Source: Deltaproteobacteria bacterium (GTDB lineage: Bacteria > Desulfobacterota > Desulfuromonadia > Desulfuromonadales > Geopsychrobacteraceae). Taken from it: a stretch of DNA of 64,000 nt. The position numbers were made by a program, and so were the translations under genes. Below are positions 4,747 to 13,433 of the stretch, one piece after another; position 1 is the first letter of the stretch, and every line of letters starts with the position of its first letter. The notes below the pieces were generated by a model. That model was given only the letters and a program-made list of their open reading frames with translations. It was not told the origin of the DNA and made no database searches. Location: the NCBI GenBank assembly GCA_024280485.1, contig JAJRQB010000019.1:3695-67694 (forward strand), read 5' to 3'.

Positions 4747-7700
4747 ATGTCAGTAACAAAGTTTAAACGAATTATGGTTGCTAATCGTGGTGAGATCGCT
4801 ATCCGGATCTTTCGTGCTTGTACTGAGCTGGGGATTGGTACGATTGCGCTCTACTCTGAGCAGGACCGTCTTTCATTGCATCGCTATAAGGCTGATGAAG
4901 CCTATCTGATTGGTAAGGGGAAAGGCCCGATTGACGCCTATCTCGACTATGAAGAGATTGTCGACCTGGCGCGTAAGAAAGAGATTGATGCGATTCATCC
5001 TGGTTATGGTTTCTTGTCTGAGAATGCTGATTTTGCCGAGGCCTGTGAGCGTGCCGGGATAGCTTTCATCGGACCGACTGGCGATATCATGCGCAGCCTC
5101 GGTGATAAGATGGCTGGCCGCGCTGTCGCTATGGCCGCCGATGTGCCGATTGTGCCGGGAACATCGAAGCCAGTTCAGACAGAGGAAGAAGCACTGATCT
5201 TCGCCAGGGACTGCGGATATCCGATCATCGTCAAGGCCTCAGCCGGTGGCGGTGGACGCGGGATGCGGGTTGTGCGTAATCAGCAAGAGCTGAAAGAGGG
5301 TTTGCGCTCGGCCGCCAGTGAGGCTGAGGCTTCCTTCGGTAACGCTGAGGTCTTCATGGAAAAGTATATTGAAGATCCCAAGCATATTGAGGTTCAGCTC
5401 TTAGGTGACAACTATGGCAACCTGGTGCACTTTTACGAGCGGGATTGCTCTATCTAGCGTCGCCATCAAAAAGTTATTGAGGTTGCACCTGCGTTGTCTC
5501 TGACCAAAAAGCAGCGAGAACAAGTTTGTAACTACGCCCTGGAGATTGGTAACGCAGTTAAATATCGAAATGCCGGAACCGTCGAATTTTTGATGGACGG
5601 TGCGGGCAAGTTCTATTTCATCGAGGTCAATCCGCGGATTCAGGTTGAGCATACCGTGACCGAGCTGATCACCATGCGCAACCTGGTTCAGGCGCAGATT
5701 CTGGTGGCACAGGGTCACAAGCTGGCTGATCCGGAAATCGGCATCAAGAGTCAAAAGGATATCGAATTACGTGGCGCAGCTATTCAGTGTCGAATTACGA
5801 CTGAAGATCCGACCAATGATTTTGCGCCAGATTTTGGCAAACTGAAGGTCTATCGCAGCGCTGCTGGACTTGGTGTACGCCTTGATGCAGGCAGCGCCTA
5901 TGCTGGCGCAGAGATTACCCCCCACTACGATTCAATGCTGGTCAAGGTGTCGACCTTTGGGCGCAATCTTGAGCAGGCTTCGCGAACGATGGATCGTGCG
6001 CTGCAAGAGTTCCGTATTCGTGGGGTTAAAACCAATATCAGTTTCCTTGAAAAGGTCATCACTCATCCCGAGTTTTTGGCGAGTAAGTGCAATACTTCGT
6101 TTCTTGATACCCATCCAGAGGTTTTTGTCTTTCCCAAAAAGCAAGATCGTGCGAATAAGGTTCTTTCCTATATCGGGCATACTTCGGTGAATGGTTATCC
6201 TGGGATTGCACCTGAGAAACGTTTGCATTCACGTGACCTGCGTGATGCCACTGTTCCGGAAATTCCCTATGGACAGGCGTTGCCGAGAGGAACGCGAGAC
6301 ATCCTGCGCGAAAAGGGTCCCGAAGGGCTCGCGACATGGGCGCGCAAAAATAATCATCTGCTTATTACCGACACCACCATGCGCGACGCTCATCAGTCTT
6401 TGATGGCGACCCGGATCAGAACAGCTGACCTTGAGCGGATCGCCGAAGCGACAGCACACTTGGGGGGTGGCCTCTTCTCTCTGGAGATGTGGGGCGGCGC
6501 GACTTTTGACGTTGCGATGCGTTTTTTGTGTGAAGACCCCTGGGAGCGCCTTGACCGTTTACGCGCCAAAATCCCCAACATCTGTTTCCAAATGTTGCTG
6601 CGCGGCTCAAATGCGGTCGGCTATACCAACTATCCCGACAATGTAGTGCAGGAGTTTGTAAAGCACGCGGCTCAGGGCGGTATCGATATCTTCCGTGTCT
6701 TTGATTCATTGAACTGGACCAAAGGGATGCGGGTCGCGATGGATGCGGTTCGTAAGGAGGGTGCCGTTTGTGAGGCCTCAATCTGCTACACCGGTGATAT
6801 CCTCGATCCGAAACGGGACAAATATAGCCTTGAGTACTACGTAAAAATGGCCAAAGAGCTTGAAACGATGGGTGCACATATTCTGGCGATCAAGGATATG
6901 GCCGGTCTCCTCAAACCTTTTGCTGCCGAAAAGCTGGTGAAAGCCCTTAAGAATGAAATCGGGATTCCGATTCACCTGCATACGCATGACACTTCAAGTA
7001 ACGGTGGGGCGATGTTGATGATGGCCGCTCAGGCCGGCTGCGATATTGTCGACGCAGCGCTCTCCTCGGTGTCTGGTCTGACTTCACAGCCCAATATGAA
7101 TGCGCTGTTGTCTGCTTTTGAAGGGTCAATCTGGGATCCACAACTTGACATGCCGGGCTTGCAGCAACTGGCTAACTATTGGGAAACTTGCCGGTCCTAT
7201 TACGAGCCATTTGAATCGGAACTGCGAAGTGGTACTGCTCAGGTCTATGAACACGAGATCCCTGGTGGCCAATATTCGAACTACAAGCCACAGGTTGAAG
7301 GTATGGGCCTGGGGCATCGCTGGGAAGAATGTAAGCAGATGTACCGTAAGGTCAACGAGATGTTCGGTGATCTGGTCAAGGTAACTCCTTCGTCAAAAAT
7401 TGTTGGCGACATGGCGATGTTTATGATTCAGAACAATCTGGAGCCCGAAGATGTCATGGCACGCGGTCATGAATTGACCTTTCCGCAGGGCGTCATCGAT
7501 TTCTTTAAGGGGATGATCGGTCAGCCCTATGGTGGCTTCCCCAAAGAATTGCAGAAGATTATCCTCAAGGATGAGGAGCCGTTGACCTGTCGCCCGGGTG
7601 AGTTGCTGGAGCCGGTCGATTTTAAGGCAAAAAAGGCTGAGCTTGAGAAGAAGCTTGAGCATAAAGTTTCCGATAGGGATGTTATGTCAGCGGTTCTTTA

Positions 7701-8199
7701 TCCCGGGGTCTTTGAGGAATTTGATCGTTTCCGTCAGACCTACTCTGATACTTCAGTCCTGCCAACGCCGGTGTTCTTCTATGGCTTGGATGTTGGTGAA
7801 GAAGTCACCATCGATATTCAGGAAGGGAAGACCCTGATCATCAAGCTTAACGCCATCGGCAAGGTACATAAGGATGGGACTCGAAATATCTACTTCGAGC
7901 TGAACGGTATGCCGCGCTCGGCCGTCGTAACTGACCTTTCGGTCGAATCTGAAGTGGCGATCCGAGTCAAGGCTGAACCGGGTAACGATAATCAGGTCGG
8001 GGCACCGATGCCGGGTAAGATCTTCAAACTTCTGGTGGCGGTCGGTGATGAAGTCAAGAAAGGGGAGACCCTGCTGGCGACTGAAGCGATGAAGATGGAG
8101 ACCAACGTTAAGGCGAAAATGACAGGCACAATTAAGGAGATCCTTTTCAACGAGGGTGAGTTGGTTGATCAGGCTGATCTGTTGGTGGTTTTTGAATGA
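4747..8199 (+). pseudogene. pyc: Pyruvate carboxylase: one continuous frame interrupted by an in-frame TAG at 5455-5457
   Basis: ORFs 4747-5457 and 5494-8199 are in the same frame. The junction reads YERDCSI-TAG-RRHQKVIEVAPA, where biotin carboxylases have the invariant CS(I/V/M)QRRHQK. Downstream are the carboxyltransferase domain and the C-terminal biotinyl motif EAMKME. Confidence 0.9.
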
Positions 8200-8257: not shown

Positions 8258-8285
8258 GCCGACTCCGAAAGGAGTCGGCTTTTTT
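8258..8285. terminator. Rho-independent terminator between convergent pyc and ptsP
   Basis: gccgactcc-gaaa-ggagtcggc followed by tttttt. Confidence 0.75.
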
Positions 8286-10632
8286 AATTACTGGGCGATA
8301 TTTTTTCAAGAGCACTCGCGAGGTATGCACGAATTTCGGTGCTGCTGCCCATTTGTAGAATTTCAGCCGCAACTTGGCGAGCCTCATCAAGAGATACTTT
8401 GCTTAGGAAGTCCTTGAGGTGCGGGATGTAGGGTGCTGAGAGCGAAAACTGATCAATCCCCATGCCGATAAGGGCGTAGAGACAACTGTTGTCTGTCGCC
8501 ATCTCGCCGCACAGGCAAAGGTCGATCTGTTTCTCTTTAGCTACTTCGGCCAAGTAGGCCAAGGACGAGAGCACTGCCGGGTGAAGTGGGTCGTAGTAAC
8601 TTTGTACTAGTGGGTTTGAGCGGTCAGCCGCGAGCATATATTGAATTAAATCGTTGGTCCCGAGGGAGAAGAAGTCGACCTCTGCGGCTAAATGGGGAGC
8701 CAGGCGAACCGCAGCCGGAACCTCGATCATCGCACCGATCGGTATGTCACTCAGAAAATCGATCTTCTCTTTCTGCAGGTTGGTCATGGCCTCAGCGACC
8801 AATTGTTGACAGGTTCTGACTTCTTCCAATGTTGAAATCATCGGAAAGAGTAAGCGAACCGGTCCGTGAATACCAGCCATCAGGATCGCTTCGATCTGGG
8901 TCTGGAAAATGTCCCTGTGGTCGAGACTCACCCGTACCGAGCGCCAGCCCATAAAAGGGTTGTTCTCCTTGGGATGACTAAAATAGGGGAGGGCTTTGTC
9001 TCCTCCGATGTCAAGGGTGCGGATCGTGACGGGGGCACCATCAAATCCTTCAACAACCTTGCGATAGAGCTGATATTGATCTTCACGGTCAGGGAAGTTG
9101 CTGCGCGCCATATAAGGGAACTCTGTACGGTAAAGTCCAACCCCTTCGGCACCATTGCGGCGAGCAATGTCGATGTCACTCAGCAAGCCGATGTTGGCTC
9201 GTAGTTGAATGAGATGACCGTCAGCAGTCAGCGCCGGAATATCGCGTAATTGATCGAGCCGTTCCTTTTCCTGGGCACGGTCAAATTCAAGTCGGAAATA
9301 TTCATCAAGGATTGTTTCAGTCGGGTTGAGAAAAACGCAACCCGAGTTGGCATCCAGAATCAATTCCGTATCGGGTTCAATGTGGGTCATTGCGCCCTTG
9401 ACTCCAATCAACGCCGGAATGCCGAGGGCCTTGGCCATGATGACCGAGTGCGAGTTCGTTTCATTCGATTCGAGAATCAGGCCACTCATCTTGTTGTGAT
9501 CGATGATTGCCATATCTGAAGGGAGCAGGCGGCGAGCAACAAGGATGCCGGTATGGTGCAACTGGAGACTATCCGATTGCTGGCCGAGCAGATTGCTCAA
9601 CAGGCGACGGCCGATATCTTCCATGTCGGCTGCGCGTTCGCGCAGATAGGGATCCTCCATTTTATTGAAGGCCTTCAGGTAGTTGCGGATGACTTTTTTC
9701 AGGGCATAGGGTGCGCAGTGTCCCGCTTCGATCTGTTCATGAAGTTTTTCAATGAAGCCACGATCTTCCAGGATCATCAGATGGGTGTGGAAAATTGCGG
9801 CATCGGCCTGGGTGAGTCGCTCTGCGACCCTTTTTTCCAGGTAGAGTGTTTCGATGCGGGTCTGGCGTAGTGCTTCATCGAGGTGAGTCAGTTCTTTGTT
9901 GATATCGACATCGTGTTCATCGTAGATATCGGCAAAGCCGAGGTCTTCATCAATGAGATTTGCCGGACCAGTAATCACGCCAGGGTAGGCCACTTGGCCG
10001 CGTAATACGGCTGGTTCCTCCGGGACTGGCTTGTCGGTATTTCTGCTTGTCGTCTCCCCTTCGTCTGTCGGCGCAGGGAGGTCGAACAGGTCTTGTTGTT
10101 GATCGATTGTGTCGAGGAGGCGCGCGTTGACGACAATCGAGGCCACCTGGAAGGCGATGGTCTTCAGGGTCGAGGTTTCATCCTTCGAAAAGGTACGTCT
10201 TTCACGGGTCTGGATGACCATGACGCCGAGGGGGGCGTTGCGGTCGAATAATGGGATAGCCAGAAAGGAGTGGAACTGTTCCTCACCGGTTCCGGCAAAA
10301 TAACGGTAGCGAGGATCATTTTGTGGTTCTTCAACGGCAAGCACCGTACGCTGCTCGACGGCTAAGCCGGTCAGACCTTCGCCAACCTTTAGCCGTACCT
10401 GGCCAACGGCTTCGGCAGCGAGGCCATAGGTGGCACTGAGGACCAGCGTGTCGTTCTGGCCTTCCATGAGGTAGAGGGAACAGACCTCGGAGTGAGCGCG
10501 CTCAGCAACAAGTGTGACTATATTTTCAAGGGTTTCATCGAGATGATGGGATTGCAGGATGATGGCACTGATGTCCTGCAGGGTACTTAGTCCGAGCTTG
10601 ATATCTGATTTTTTGCGATCTTTGTGTCCCAA
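8284..10632 (-). CDS. ptsP: Phosphoenolpyruvate-protein phosphotransferase PtsP (GAF domain plus PTS enzyme I; EI-Ntr type)
   Basis: 782 aa with an N-terminal GAF-like region, then enzyme I motifs (TNSHSVIMAKALGIPA, GLYRTEF, IRTLD.GGDK, FFS.GTNDL.QY). TTG start with an AGGGGGA RBS. Confidence 0.9.
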   Translation of the reverse strand: MGHKDRKKSDIKLGLSTLQDISAIILQSHHLDETLENIVTLVAERAHSEVCSLYLMEGQNDTLVLSATYGLAAEAVGQVRLKVGEGLTGLAVEQRTVLAVEEPQNDPRYRYFAGTGEEQFHSFLAIPLFDRNAPLGVMVIQTRERRTFSKDETSTLKTIAFQVASIVVNARLLDTIDQQQDLFDLPAPTDEGETTSRNTDKPVPEEPAVLRGQVAYPGVITGPANLIDEDLGFADIYDEHDVDINKELTHLDEALRQTRIETLYLEKRVAERLTQADAAIFHTHLMILEDRGFIEKLHEQIEAGHCAPYALKKVIRNYLKAFNKMEDPYLRERAADMEDIGRRLLSNLLGQQSDSLQLHHTGILVARRLLPSDMAIIDHNKMSGLILESNETNSHSVIMAKALGIPALIGVKGAMTHIEPDTELILDANSGCVFLNPTETILDEYFRLEFDRAQEKERLDQLRDIPALTADGHLIQLRANIGLLSDIDIARRNGAEGVGLYRTEFPYMARSNFPDREDQYQLYRKVVEGFDGAPVTIRTLDIGGDKALPYFSHPKENNPFMGWRSVRVSLDHRDIFQTQIEAILMAGIHGPVRLLFPMISTLEEVRTCQQLVAEAMTNLQKEKIDFLSDIPIGAMIEVPAAVRLAPHLAAEVDFFSLGTNDLIQYMLAADRSNPLVQSYYDPLHPAVLSSLAYLAEVAKEKQIDLCLCGEMATDNSCLYALIGMGIDQFSLSAPYIPHLKDFLSKVSLDEARQVAAEILQMGSSTEIRAYLASALEKISPSN

Positions 10633-10676
10633 GGTGATTTCCCCCTTCGAGTGTCTATCCTTGCATATTGAGAGCT

Positions 10677-10705
10677 ATTCTAGCTTAGGGGATGTTTCTT
10701 GGCAG
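10677..10705 (-). promoter_or_regulatory. Candidate sigma-70-type promoter for ptsP (CTGCCA-N17-TAGAAT)
   Basis: The minus strand reads ctgcca-agaaacatcccctaagc-tagaat. It lies between the upstream terminator and the ptsP RBS. Confidence 0.3.
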
Positions 10706-10706
10706 T

Positions 10707-10753
10707 AAAAAAATAAAAAAACGCCGCCAAAGGGAGAGAGGTCTTTGACGGCG
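10707..10753 (-). terminator. Strong intrinsic terminator on the minus strand, upstream of ptsP
   Basis: Minus strand: CGCCGUCAAAG-ACCUCUCUCC-CUUUGGCGGCG (11-bp stem with one G.U pair) followed by U7-A-U7. Confidence 0.7.
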
Positions 10754-10826
10754 AAAGAAGGGATGGTTCGTTTGACTTATTCCGTTCGGGCGGGAACGGT
10801 AAATATCCCTCGTTGCAATTATGGTT
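10707..10826 (-). ncRNA. Candidate sigma-54-dependent small RNA (~106-120 nt) or terminating leader
   Basis: Bounded by the -24/-12 promoter (predicted start near 10826) and the intrinsic terminator. It has no ATG and no RBS-preceded ORF. It contains a hairpin CCGUUC/GAACGG with the C-rich loop CCGCCC, a CU-rich linker CAUCCCUUCUUUC and a CU-rich terminator loop. Confidence 0.4.
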
Positions 10827-10836
10827 AAGTTTGAAT

Positions 10837-10852
10837 AGCAATAGATGTGCCA
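10837..10852 (-). promoter_or_regulatory. Sigma-54 (-24/-12) promoter, TGGCAC-ATCTA-TTGCT
   Basis: The reverse complement of 10837-10852 is TGGCACATCTATTGCT. This matches the TGGCAC-N5-TTGC(A/T) consensus exactly, with correct GG/GC spacing. Confidence 0.6.
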
Positions 10853-10910
10853 GGTTGTGTTTTGAGGGAACACGGCCAATTGAAGGGGGTCTGACGGGTT
10901 GTTTTGGGGG

Positions 10911-10956
10911 CTAACCGGGCAACATGTGCCGAAACTGGCACAGGTTGCCCGGTTAG
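10911..10956. promoter_or_regulatory. 46-bp near-perfect palindrome, a candidate upstream activator site
   Basis: CTAACCGGGCAAC-a-TGTGCC-gaaact-GGCACA-g-GTTGCCCGGTTAG. Its centre lies about 108 bp upstream of the predicted sigma-54 start. Confidence 0.4.
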
Positions 10957-10992
10957 TTTCTCTACGTCTCGTTATGAACTGTTGCATTCGGG

Positions 10993-11025
10993 CATCTGTG
11001 CAACATGTCACATGTGGCACAGATG
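10993..11025. promoter_or_regulatory. Second inverted repeat (CATCTGTGC-N15-GCACAGATG), a candidate distal activator site
   Basis: 9-bp perfect arms that share the TGTGC/GCACA half-site with the first palindrome. Its centre lies about 183 bp upstream of the predicted start and 26 nt past the activator gene stop. Confidence 0.3.
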
Positions 11026-11050
11026 GTGACGTGAGTGTGTCACTTATGGC

Positions 11051-13354
11051 TCACGTTTGTGCAGGTTGATGTCGTTTTTGGCTAATGTCTTGACGCTGCA
11101 GCATTCGATAGAAGGTTCTGCGCGGAACCTTGGCAAGACGTGCTGCTGCTGAAACATTCCCTCCAGCCTCTTCAAGGTAGTGGAGCAGGAGATCTTTTTC
11201 TACTGTATTGACCTGTTGGTCACGCTGACTACGTAGTCCGCAAGCTTGTTGGATGACAACTTGACCGTTTTGTTTGCGCAGCTGTTCGGCAAAAACAGTC
11301 GGGAGTTGCTCGAGGTGAATAATCTGATTCTGGGAGAGGACTGCAGCACGCTCAATGACATTCTGCAACTCTCTGATGTTGCCAGGCCAATGGTAGCAAG
11401 ATAGAGCTTTCAGGGCGGTATCGTCGATCCGGTGAATTGTTTTATTTAATCTTATTGTCGCTTGATTAAGGAAGTGTTCAACGAGTTTTGGTATCGACTC
11501 CAGTCGGTTGCGTAAGGGAGGCAGGGTGATACTGAAAACGTTGATCCGGTAAAACAGGTCTTCACGGAACCAGCCCTGGCTGATCCCTTCTTCCAGGTGC
11601 CTGTTTGTCGCAGCGATTAAGCGCACATCAACCCTGACGCTTTTGTTACTACCAACCGCCTTTATTTCGCCATTATCGAGCACCCTCAGGAGTTCAGCTT
11701 GAAGCTTGGGGGTGATGTCACCGATTTCATCCAGAAAAATAGTGCCACCATCGGCCTCTTCGAATAGACCTTTTTTGTCGGCGACTGCTCCGGTGAATGC
11801 GCCCTTTTTGTGACCAAAGAGTTCGCTTTCGAGCAGGCTGTCAGTCAGTGTGGTGCAGTTGATTGTCACCAGGGGATTCTCTGCACGTTGGCTGGCTTGA
11901 TGAATGGCGCGCGCTGTCAGCTCTTTGCCGGTACCGCTTTCGCCGCGAATCAAGACTGAGGTTGGGGTAGGGCCGACCTGTTGAATCAGTTTGAGAACCT
12001 CCTGAGTACGGCCATCGTTGCCGATAATGTCGCCGTTTCCATAGCTCTGATCGAGCGCCCGTTGCGCCAATTGATACTTGCGTTCAAGTTTGGAATTGTC
12101 CTCTACGAGACGTTTTTGTGAAAAAGGATGGCACATGCCGCTTTCGGCCAGACCTTGAAAAACCGCAACGGCGTGTTCACGACAGGTACGGTAACCGCAG
12201 CTACCGCAGTTGAGCTCATCGCTGGTTGTAAATTTATCGGTTTCGTGAAGGATACGCGTAATTGCATCATCACTTGGTTTGCCCATCTGAAGTTGTCTGT
12301 CAGCAAAACCTCGATTGAGCAGGACTCTGCCAGAACCTGAGCTGTATTTTGGAGTTGGTTGGTAAGGGATTGTTTTTTTGTGATATTCGATAATCAGATT
12401 ACGCTTGGAGAAGGCCGTAAGACGATTGGTCCGTCCTGGACCGCCAATGCAACCACCTGTGCAGAAACGGACATCGACATAGCGGGGGGCAATGCGCCGT
12501 GCAGCGATGTCGCGGATGACTTCCATGGTTGCTTCTTCACCAACCGTTGAGACGAATTTAGGGTCGAGGCCATCGTGACCGATCCCGAAAATATGGAAAG
12601 GGCCTCCCGATATTGAAAAGCTGCGTCCATTAAGAGTGCTATTGCCGTTGAAGGCCTCTGGTTTGAGTCGTCGTGGGTCGATATTTTTCTTTTCGAGAAT
12701 TTTTTTAAGCTCATTATAGGTCAGAACTGTGTCGATGGCGCCAGCGACCTGTTCGTCTTCAATCTCAAATTTTCCACCAATACAAGAACTGATATAAACC
12801 ACGCGAACGGGGCTGTTATGGCAGGATTTAATGTAGCGTCCGATGGCAATCATCGGCGAGACGATCGGCACAAGATTATTGAGGAGTTGTGGGTAATGGC
12901 GCTCGATAAGATCAACGACCGTTGGACAATGACTTGATATCAGGGGTTCACTGTTGTCTCGGCCGAGAAGGGCACGGTACTCAGGAGCAATCAGTTCAAC
13001 TCCAGCGGCCCCTTCAAGGATATCTGTAAACCCGATCTGACGCAGGGCTGTGGCGAGTTGTCCCGGTTCCAGATCATAGAAAAATGCGGGATATGAACAG
13101 CCCAGAACAGCAACAACCGGGATGTTTTGATTGAGTAGCGTTTCTGTTGCGTCGATCGCATCGGCAATGACTTTGGCGCCCTGTGAGCAGGCTTTGATAC
13201 ATTTTCCACAACCGATGCAGCGTTGATGAAGGACGACAGCACAATCTTTACGGATGCCGATTGCCTTTGTTGGGCAGGTGCGAACGCAGGCGTAGCACTT
13301 GCGACACCGACTGGCAATGGTCTTGATTGGTCCCTGACTTTGAGTTTCCGGCAC
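11051..13354 (-). CDS. Sigma-54-dependent transcriptional activator with N-terminal 2x[4Fe-4S] ferredoxin and [FeFe]-hydrogenase-like (H-domain-like) sensor
   Basis: 767 aa, GTG start with a GGAGG RBS. Domains in order: CRKCYACVRTCP and CIGCGKCIKAC; hydrogenase-like motifs SSHCP, SSCIGGKFE and FCTGGCIGGPG; CGSCGYRTC Fe-S motif; AAA+ region with GESGTGKE, ESELFGHKKGAFTGA and FLDEIG; C-terminal Fis-type HTH. Confidence 0.85.
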   Translation of the reverse strand: MPETQSQGPIKTIASRCRKCYACVRTCPTKAIGIRKDCAVVLHQRCIGCGKCIKACSQGAKVIADAIDATETLLNQNIPVVAVLGCSYPAFFYDLEPGQLATALRQIGFTDILEGAAGVELIAPEYRALLGRDNSEPLISSHCPTVVDLIERHYPQLLNNLVPIVSPMIAIGRYIKSCHNSPVRVVYISSCIGGKFEIEDEQVAGAIDTVLTYNELKKILEKKNIDPRRLKPEAFNGNSTLNGRSFSISGGPFHIFGIGHDGLDPKFVSTVGEEATMEVIRDIAARRIAPRYVDVRFCTGGCIGGPGRTNRLTAFSKRNLIIEYHKKTIPYQPTPKYSSGSGRVLLNRGFADRQLQMGKPSDDAITRILHETDKFTTSDELNCGSCGYRTCREHAVAVFQGLAESGMCHPFSQKRLVEDNSKLERKYQLAQRALDQSYGNGDIIGNDGRTQEVLKLIQQVGPTPTSVLIRGESGTGKELTARAIHQASQRAENPLVTINCTTLTDSLLESELFGHKKGAFTGAVADKKGLFEEADGGTIFLDEIGDITPKLQAELLRVLDNGEIKAVGSNKSVRVDVRLIAATNRHLEEGISQGWFREDLFYRINVFSITLPPLRNRLESIPKLVEHFLNQATIRLNKTIHRIDDTALKALSCYHWPGNIRELQNVIERAAVLSQNQIIHLEQLPTVFAEQLRKQNGQVVIQQACGLRSQRDQQVNTVEKDLLLHYLEEAGGNVSAAARLAKVPRRTFYRMLQRQDISQKRHQPAQT

Positions 13355-13433
13355 TGACTGGTCCTCCGCGTCTCTCTGGACTCTTTTTTGTCAGGCCGGA
13401 TTGTGCCATTGCTGACACAATTGATCAAGGGTT

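Follow-up and report, generated by a model that had tools for sequence, protein, structure and literature searches.

A predicted sigma-54-dependent small RNA family beside a hydrogenase-like activator gene in Desulfuromonadales-type bacteria

Based on the analysis reported here, we suggest that a sigma-54-dependent small RNA (sRNA) is encoded between an activator gene and ptsP in a member of the Geopsychrobacteraceae. The DNA analysed is a stretch of 64,000 nt from this organism (contig JAJRQB010000019.1, positions 3,695 to 67,694; hereafter, the window), and the segment in question occupies positions 10826 to ~10715 of its minus strand. That this segment is a real sRNA gene is, judging from its sequence and from its homologues, next to certain. 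We treat it as a new sRNA family across the sampled Desulfuromonadales-type relatives, within the known class of sigma-54-dependent sRNAs that adjoin the gene of an enhancer-binding protein (EBP). In the explanation that accounts best for the observations as a whole, the segment is an independent gene, its transcription would be driven by the adjacent EBP and its product would act in trans; we consider this explanation probable. A preliminary description of the window had proposed a stand-alone sigma-54 sRNA unit beside the gene of its cognate activator, and this proposal is now supported by 70 + 74 homologues, covarying helices, the lack of a conserved open reading frame (ORF) and an operator found across the family.

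The RNA family and its sigma-54 promoter

One genome per species was scanned with the EBP protein, and 80 orthologous loci were retained; 143 further relatives were detected and are outside the counts given here. All 80 loci come from Desulfuromonadales/Geobacterales-type organisms, the closest being a Geopsychrobacter metagenome-assembled genome with 91% amino-acid identity. This bears out the placement in the Desulfuromonadales implied in the preliminary description. At 69 of these loci, a -24/-12 promoter box is followed by an 87-113-nt segment with a GC-rich hairpin and a U-tract, and the RNA of one more locus (L007) was recovered by a covariance model, giving 70 genomes. This model, which was built from the 69 RNA sequences, has its match in the window at 10715-10823 (68.5 bits, E = 7e-13). 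Over 1.0 Mb, it detects a single copy at each sRNA locus and has no further matches; extra paralogues of the sRNA were likewise absent from the window and from 1.5 Mb of loci. Metagenome contigs were searched by the terminator-hairpin pattern only, i.e. blind to the EBP. They contained 74 additional full-length copies, with the EBP gene directly upstream in 57 of the 62 copies that can be judged. Five other metagenome matches, which score 30-37 bits and have neither promoter nor EBP, were discounted as terminators matched by chance. The covariance model makes this new sRNA family, of about 144 members, easy to search for. Carriers include Malonomonas rubra DSM 5091 as well as Geopsychrobacter and Desulfuromonas species. 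The RNA unit in the window has the following parts:

10715-10826, minus strand: predicted small RNA (covariance-model match, fold, homologues), with the predicted +1 near 10826 and the 3' end within the U-tract 10721-10707
10826-10812, minus strand: single-stranded 5' tail of the sRNA in the predicted fold
10758-10811, minus strand: stem-loop 1 in the minimum-free-energy structure, with closing helix GAGGGAU/AUCCCUU, inner hairpin CCGUUC/GAACGG and the C-rich loop CCGCCC (10793-10788)
10722-10753, minus strand: terminator hairpin of 11 bp with the 10-nt loop ACCUCUCUCC (10742-10733), followed by U7-A-U7 (10721-10707) (sequence, fold, homologues)
10837-10852, minus strand: sigma-54 (-24/-12) promoter TGGCAC-ATCTA-TTGCT, the sole exact match in the window and kept in homologues

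The predicted 120-nt RNA folds with -32.7 kcal/mol (z = -3.5), and none of 200 shuffled sequences folds as well. GAGGGAU (10811-10805) pairs with AUCCCUU (10764-10758), and only a U-rich linker is single-stranded between the two hairpins. One of the 11 bp of the terminator stem is a G-U pair, and hairpin and U-tract together span 10753-10707. The same architecture was obtained for 69 of 69 homologues folded singly, i.e. a 5' tail, stem-loop 1 closed by GGGR/YCCC, a short U-rich linker and the terminator. The apex of stem-loop 1 is variable and often C-rich across these homologues. The terminator loop has the form CUCUCUCC(CC); the sequence CUCUCUCC (motif CTCTCTCC) is exact in 59 of the 69 and has one mismatch in the remainder. 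The preliminary description had listed three exposed C/U-rich stretches. Two of these, the CCGCCC loop and the terminator loop, are retained in our structure, while the middle one, CAUCCCUUCUUUC, is mostly the 3' arm of a conserved helix and is lost from the list.

On the covariance-model alignment, which is fitted to the model and therefore somewhat favors structure, 89.4% of the cells are paired compared with ~50% with slid partners, double-sided changes occur in 11 of 17 base pairs, and the covariation score is higher than in any of 500 shuffles. In the closing helix of stem-loop 1, three of five pairs have double-sided changes; in the terminator stem, compensatory changes are present in 8 of 12 pairs with the loop fixed, and these are seen in a plain MAFFT alignment too. 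RNAalifold recovered the terminator alone from the raw MAFFT alignment, because the 5' domain is misaligned in it; the structure was then derived from the per-sequence folds and the covariance-model alignment. A covariation check across Desulfuromonadales relatives had been suggested in the preliminary description, and it yields compensatory changes in both helices. Loss of the -24/-12 element and the hairpins from related genomes had been named there beforehand as a possible refutation; both are kept.

Several features speak to the non-coding character of the segment. In the window, the ~110 nt after the promoter are without an ATG. The homologues, 87-113 nt in length, are spread evenly over the three mod-3 classes (23/23/23), the median closed ORF within the RNA is 0 aa, and an ATG is present in only half of them. 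No ORF is conserved across the sRNA homologues.

The promoter has the exact form TGGCAC-N5-TTGCT, which occurs once in the 64 kb (0.11 expected), and the spacing between its GG and GC is 10 nt. With one mismatch allowed, the pattern has three matches in the window and 2.6 are expected, i.e. it is near chance, and a single window could therefore not settle the promoter question. Among the loci, a -24/-12 box with GG and GC intact lies at a median of 224 bp past the EBP gene in 76 of the 77 that reach beyond the EBP stop codon, compared with a background for the relaxed pattern of 0.013 per 150 nt. The box is also present in 70 of 70 metagenome copies with sufficient upstream sequence.

A permissive scan of 10400-11300 against Rfam release 15 returned only chance matches and no family at E <= 10. 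One of the rejected candidates was the narK RNA (RF03032) at 10736-10851 on the minus strand, which scores 18.5 bits compared with a gathering threshold of 43.2 and aligns to the promoter box alone (GGCACA-N5-TTGCU). Because this match is confined to the 5' end of the model, the start of the RF03032 consensus looks like a sigma-54 promoter. An earlier description of this RNA was not found in a literature search that covered few subscription journals.

The adjacent activator, its probable operator and the hgtR slot

Every element that the preliminary description had listed for 10707-11025 (minus strand) was located in the window sequence where it had been placed; in other words, the inverted repeat, the palindrome, the -24/-12 element, the ATG-free stretch, the hairpin with U7-A-U7, the CTGCCA-N17-TAGAAT element and the TTG start are all borne out. 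The identities given there to the flanking genes, a hydrogenase-like sigma-54 activator and ptsP, are confirmed by Pfam. The features around the RNA unit are:

11051-13354, minus strand: sigma-54 activator (EBP) gene (Pfam domains, translation, 80 orthologous loci at 52-91% identity)
13400-13428, minus strand: putative sigma-70-like promoter of the EBP gene, TTGATC-N17-CACAAT (sequence), its spacer and -10 element overlapping the palindrome GTGTCAGCAATGGCAC (13418-13403)
10993-11025, minus strand: distal enhancer-like inverted repeat CATCTGTGC-N15-GCACAGATG, centered at ~-183, with 16-nt arms of 94% complementarity and the one-mismatch operator core GTGCCACATGTGACAT
10911-10956, minus strand: proximal enhancer palindrome centered at ~-108, with 20-nt arms of 95% complementarity and the core GTGCC-AGTTTC-GGCAC at 10941-10926
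10677-10705, minus strand: putative sigma-70-like promoter of ptsP, CTGCCA-N17-TAGAAT (sequence), 3' of the sRNA terminator
8284-10632, minus strand: ptsP, encoding a GAF-containing enzyme I-Ntr (EI-Ntr; Pfam), with a TTG start at 10632

The predicted sRNA start lies 225 bp past the EBP gene. According to Pfam, the EBP consists of Fer4 (a 2x[4Fe-4S] ferredoxin domain), Fe_hyd_lg_C ([FeFe]-hydrogenase large-subunit-like), FeS, Sigma54_activat (AAA+) and HTH_8 (Fis-type) domains, and no receiver domain was found. The translation contains GAFTGA and the altered H-cluster-type motifs SSHCP, SSCIGGKFE and FCTGGCIGGPG, which by eye and in our own judgement we read as putative H-cluster ligands. Within residues ~140-310, His replaces the first Cys of the canonical TSCCP (SSHCP), and the other cluster-ligand-like Cys residues are, again by eye, seemingly retained. 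The His-for-Cys change would fit a sensory rather than a catalytic domain. In comparison with NCBIfam, the protein scores well under every equivalog cut-off (for LuxO, 270.8 compared with 800 bits).

The two palindromes upstream of the RNA promoter share a core that recurs throughout the family. GTGYC-N6-GRCAC is present 1.26 times per locus in the 240-bp upstream region compared with a background of 0.02, i.e. it is 64-fold enriched. The cores peak at 80-100 bp (the main peak) and at 150-190 bp upstream of the -24 box, corresponding to ~-105 and ~-180 from the start. The preliminary description had taken the palindromes at ~-108 and ~-183 for activator sites, which agrees with these family-wide enhancer distances. 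Of 69 sRNA loci, 58 have the core, as do six of the seven loci in which the gene hgtR takes the place of the RNA (below). In 61 of 77 loci, the same core is also found upstream of the EBP gene, no more than 200 bp and mostly 30-100 bp from its start; there, the palindrome usually overlaps GGCACAAT and the typical promoter reads TTGACA-N17-CACAAT. A site common to a regulator's own promoter and an adjacent sigma-54 enhancer is the classic signature of an NtrC-family operator. Because the palindrome is found both at the sRNA enhancer and in the EBP's own promoter, it is likely the operator of the EBP. From these patterns, we strongly infer that the EBP would bind the GTGYC-N6-GRCAC sites, activate the RNA promoter and regulate its own gene. 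That the sRNA depends on the EBP and sigma-54 appears highly probable.

At seven loci from Geobacteraceae, what follows the promoter at this position is an ORF of 59-63 aa (MG[KR]M[RG]ENPRYNV[IV]SMR...) and no RNA. The ORF can be identified as HgtR, since the expression primers for GSU3364 (PMC2817479) fit it: the forward one encodes MGRMREN, and the reverse one, in our translation, gives a protein end ...KAA as in these ORFs. In Geobacter sulfurreducens, HgtR is a hydrogen-induced, RpoN-dependent ribbon-helix-helix repressor of gltA, nuo and atp; primer extension placed the start of hgtR downstream of -24/-12 elements of the RpoN type, and the gene is monocistronic and induced during growth on hydrogen, and is essential for growth on H2 (Ueki & Lovley, NAR 2010, PMC2817479). 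The product of the gene upstream of hgtR is an EBP that contains an iron-only-hydrogenase domain and that was proposed by these authors as a hydrogen sensor (PMC2817479). The link of the activator to hydrogen or redox state that was made in the preliminary description, to whose author this work was unknown, thus has experimental backing from the gene in the same slot in Geobacter (PMC2817479).

The hgtR loci have the same operator core ~90-105 bp upstream of the box. A profile search returned 1104 HgtR-family proteins (PF19807/DUF6290-type), and in eight contigs fetched for three divergent members, hgtR is always ~265 bp downstream of a Fer4/Fe-hydrogenase/sigma-54 EBP gene and is followed by a convergent RNase E/G gene. 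At L171-L177, a convergent RNase E/G gene and a radical-SAM gene consistently come after hgtR. The sRNA loci have other surroundings, and what the two kinds of locus have in common is therefore limited to the activator-promoter-output module. The covariance model finds no RNA in 15 of 15 hgtR loci, and tblastn finds no HgtR in the window or any sRNA locus; RNA and hgtR are mutually exclusive across 178 loci plus the window.

Thus, hgtR and the RNA gene share a slot ~225-265 bp downstream of orthologous EBP genes, a -24/-12 promoter and a GTGCC-N6-GGCAC operator, and each has a terminator of its own, hgtR being monocistronic. By contrast, the output here is a predicted non-coding RNA that has no sequence relation to the hgtR mRNA and does not encode the ~60-aa MG[KR]MRENPRYNV... 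protein. On the sequence features compared, the relation would be one of positional equivalence and not of membership. Since slot, promoter and operator are the same, the input signal is presumably the same as well. In a midpoint-rooted neighbor-joining tree of the EBPs, the hgtR-type proteins group together as the sister clade of all those of the RNA type; a distance tree rooted in this way is weak evidence, and the direction of the swap cannot be read from it without an outgroup. The data are consistent with one orthologous sensor module with two alternative output genes that would have been exchanged once near the split of the lineages. We tentatively propose that orthologous sensor, promoter and operator drive HgtR in Geobacteraceae and the sRNA in sister Desulfuromonadales-type lineages in a one-for-one swap of protein and RNA, with the RNA as a hydrogen-responsive global brake on tricarboxylic acid (TCA)-cycle and respiratory genes where HgtR is missing; this is possible rather than probable.

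Mode of action and alternative explanations

In the model that we suggest, which for its first step relies on the comparison of homologues, the sigma-54 promoter would drive a short RNA composed of the 5' tail, stem-loop 1, the U-rich linker and the terminator with its near-invariant loop. The adjacent EBP, bound to the palindromes at ~-105 and ~-180 and to the one in its own sigma-70 promoter, is strongly suggested to be required. By extension from its ortholog, the EBP would respond to hydrogen or a linked redox state. By analogy, the RNA would act in trans, its C/U-rich loops pairing with G-rich Shine-Dalgarno regions and repressing translation, probably with the help of Hfq given the U-rich linker and the poly-U tail (the latter point is our own suggestion). 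Pairing at ribosome-binding sites (RBS), as this analogy would have it, is about an even bet. Finally, the regulon might overlap with that of HgtR, i.e. citrate synthase, NADH dehydrogenase and ATP synthase, and the RNA would then be a post-transcriptional counterpart in species that lack HgtR. Such a resemblance between the two regulons is a minority expectation on our part. There are no TCA-cycle, nuo or atp genes in the 64-kb window; takeover of the HgtR regulon by the RNA is therefore offered as a hypothesis.

A number of points weigh against this model. What is said here of the transcript and its ends, and of a dependence on RpoN, the EBP or H2, is prediction, and sensing of H2 by the EBP is a proposal in the literature. 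The genome loci were chosen via the EBP, so linkage can be judged without bias from the metagenome set alone, in which five copies have the promoter without an adjacent EBP. Those at L091/L160, L107 and L139, which represent three contexts, also lack a clear operator; there the order is oppD-oppF, RNA, ptsP, with a good -24/-12 box and no EBP gene. At L093, the operator GTGCCATTCATGGCAC is kept and a 535-aa ORF lies directly upstream of the enhancer in the usual place of the EBP. We take this ORF to be putatively transposase-like, and the locus looks like an insertion or rearrangement beside the sRNA unit. Thus, control by this EBP is either not universal or is exerted from a distance, and the RNA at L091/L160, L107 and L139 may be controlled by an unlinked or a different EBP. 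With respect to targets, feedback of the Qrr type on the EBP mRNA was not seen (pairing with its start region, -8.3 kcal/mol compared with -8.7 for shuffled sequences). Sites complementary to the loop number four in the window (4.04 expected), the sole exact one being the opposite strand of the sRNA gene itself, and among all fetched loci, 13 such sites at RBS positions are scattered without a recurring gene family. ptsP was rejected as a conserved pairing target, its G-rich RBS being limited to the window and L001-L003. Moreover, seeds are found less commonly in terminator loops than at the 5' end, and the near-invariant loop could instead be a protein-binding site. Because the 1.6 Mb examined included no whole genome, the target search had very little power.

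In the alternative that fares best, the RNA, still driven by sigma-54 and the EBP, sequesters a protein or another RNA: the CUCUCUCC loop and the C-rich loop of stem-loop 1 would bind a pyrimidine-binding protein, e.g. S1, a cold-shock or a KH-type protein, or act as a sponge. A near-invariant loop on a stem that is free to vary is compatible with any sort of recognition element, and an mRNA target was not found in the 1.6 Mb, which given the weakness of the search says little. Known sequestering RNAs have several copies of one motif, whereas here there is a single CUCUCUCC motif per RNA and the other C-rich loops are variable. In addition, there are no exposed GGA motifs for CsrA, and pairing of C/U-rich loops with Shine-Dalgarno sequences is well established for RsaE/RoxS (PMC6158497, PMC4409812). 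We consider sequestration unlikely, yet the most serious competitor of a trans-acting, mRNA-pairing sRNA.

Far less probable is that the hairpin is a mere terminator in the 3' untranslated region of the EBP mRNA, the short RNA being a processing by-product and box and palindromes serving otherwise. It is true that no T-tract terminator is present between the EBP stop (11051) and the sRNA terminator, and EBP transcripts therefore probably end at 10707-10721. An inverted repeat ACGTGAG-N14-CTCACGT at 11029-11056 (minus strand) overlaps the EBP stop codon, has no U-tract and gives a spurious mir-5885 match in Rfam. However, 76 of 77 loci keep the -24/-12 box at a constant spacing and copies that lack a neighboring EBP have it too, a terminator would not need nearly as much conservation as is found in stem-loop 1 and the loop sequence, and the same promoter position drives the mapped hgtR transcript in Geobacter (PMC2817479). 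The sRNA unit may also terminate EBP transcripts, and the two roles are compatible.

The preliminary description had raised an alternative in which ptsP has a conditionally terminating leader (attenuator) here. In this case, the sigma-54 box would be a second ptsP promoter and the hairpin would gate read-through into EI-Ntr. EI-Ntr is part of a sigma-54-linked regulatory system. The RNA unit is co-oriented with ptsP and lies ~75 bp upstream of it in the window, ptsP adjoins the sRNA in about 50 of 70 loci, and it does so even in L091 and L107, where the EBP is missing. However, 17 sRNA loci have no adjacent ptsP; one of these contigs ends just after the RNA, and the others carry yebC-ruvC-ruvA, a P-type ATPase gene or a convergent gene on the opposite strand instead, the sRNA being unchanged. 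In other words, the RNA stays with the EBP whatever follows, and it is therefore not a ptsP leader. A strong terminator (11 bp + U7-A-U7) with no conserved alternative antiterminator fold among the homologues folded singly also speaks against attenuation, as does the separate sigma-70-like promoter between terminator and ptsP, with a promoter-like yGCCAA ... TAnnAT following the sRNA terminator in many ptsP-linked loci. The 5' region of ptsP is not conserved among the loci. On these grounds, the leader is rejected, with a very small residual probability. In several clades, ptsP has no recognizable Shine-Dalgarno sequence and a very short 5' region.

Finally, a small protein encoded by one of the minus-strand ORFs in the mechanical ORF list, e.g. 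10685-11020 (111 aa) or 10680-10841 (53 aa), can be dismissed almost outright: the 111-aa ORF spans the region across enhancer, promoter and terminator and has no NCBIfam match, the length classes, closed ORFs and ATG content given above are not those of a coding sequence, and conservation takes the form of helix covariation and not of codon periodicity.

Elsewhere in the window, pyruvate carboxylase is seemingly encoded by two adjacent plus-strand ORFs, one at 4747-5457 for the N-terminal biotin-carboxylase part (236 aa) and one at 5494-8199 with a TTG start for the rest (901 aa). The gene may truly be split, or a frameshift or an error in sequencing may be the cause.

Significance and comparison with known systems

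To our knowledge, almost nothing is known of sRNA biology in Desulfuromonadales-type bacteria, and the carriers of this family matter for metal and sulfur reduction, syntrophy and bioelectrochemistry. The RNA is linked to an unusual [FeFe]-hydrogenase-like sigma-54 sensor, and since an operator (GTGCC-N6-GGCAC) and autoregulation can now be predicted for this sensor, its signal becomes directly testable. This sensor and the slot exchange with HgtR are the distinguishing traits of the RNA, and owing to the exchange it is more than a further sRNA prediction. An RNA in the position of HgtR amounts to a natural experiment: does the exchange of a protein repressor for an sRNA under one input give the same output? 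The output in question is the shutdown of acetate oxidation and energy genes when electrons are supplied by hydrogen. If the replacement is true, the RNA would explain growth on hydrogen in relatives without HgtR.

In mechanism, RsaE/RoxS is the best analogue, both for the C/U-rich loops and for the metabolic role that we propose, with a resemblance in motif type only. RsaE/RoxS is transcribed under two-component and Rex control and not by sigma-54; it is found in Firmicutes, is not encoded beside its regulator and has repeated CCCC/UCCC motifs, whereas the RNA described here has CUCUCUCC. Rfam gave no match to support membership. In Staphylococcus and Bacillus, this redox-responsive sRNA of ~100 nt uses unpaired C-rich motifs to pair with G-rich Shine-Dalgarno sequences, lowering the expression of TCA-cycle and central-metabolism genes (PMC6158497, PMC4409812).

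The Qrr RNAs of Vibrio are likewise trans-acting sRNAs that depend on sigma-54 and an EBP, LuxO. They are Hfq-dependent and ~100 nt long, and qrr1 adjoins luxO in divergent orientation, whereas the RNA here is co-oriented with and downstream of its activator gene and no pairing with the activator mRNA was detected. Also, the Qrr RNAs have four stem-loops, a conserved 5' seed and often several paralogues, while here there is a single copy with its conserved motif in the terminator loop. Neither an Rfam match nor the score of the EBP, far under the LuxO cut-off, points to membership in this group.

The layout is closest to that of Pxr in Myxococcus xanthus. This RNA of 108 nt follows nla19, a gene for a sigma-54 regulator, from which it is separated by 262 nt that include a predicted sigma-54 promoter as well as enhancer sites (PMC5568312). 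The preliminary description had given this arrangement downstream of an NtrC-like gene correctly (PMC5568312). Both systems, from lineages of the former Deltaproteobacteria, consist of an EBP gene, a spacer with a sigma-54 promoter and enhancers, an sRNA of ~108 nt with a terminator, and an unrelated downstream gene. Pxr differs in having three stem-loops instead of two hairpins and in being processed to long and short forms; Nla19 is a receiver-domain regulator and Pxr controls fruiting-body development, whereas the activator here has a hydrogenase-like sensor. Homology to Pxr was not supported by any match in Rfam release 15 at E <= 10, the presence of a Pxr model in that release being unchecked.

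In Desulfovibrio vulgaris, non-coding RNAs directly downstream of the EBP genes DVU0653 and DVU0679 are the only listed members of the respective regulons (PMC4641369). These EBPs are two-component response regulators, and their RNAs are set beside the present one by description, Rfam having given nothing related. The module of an EBP gene and an adjacent non-coding RNA thus recurs in these lineages.

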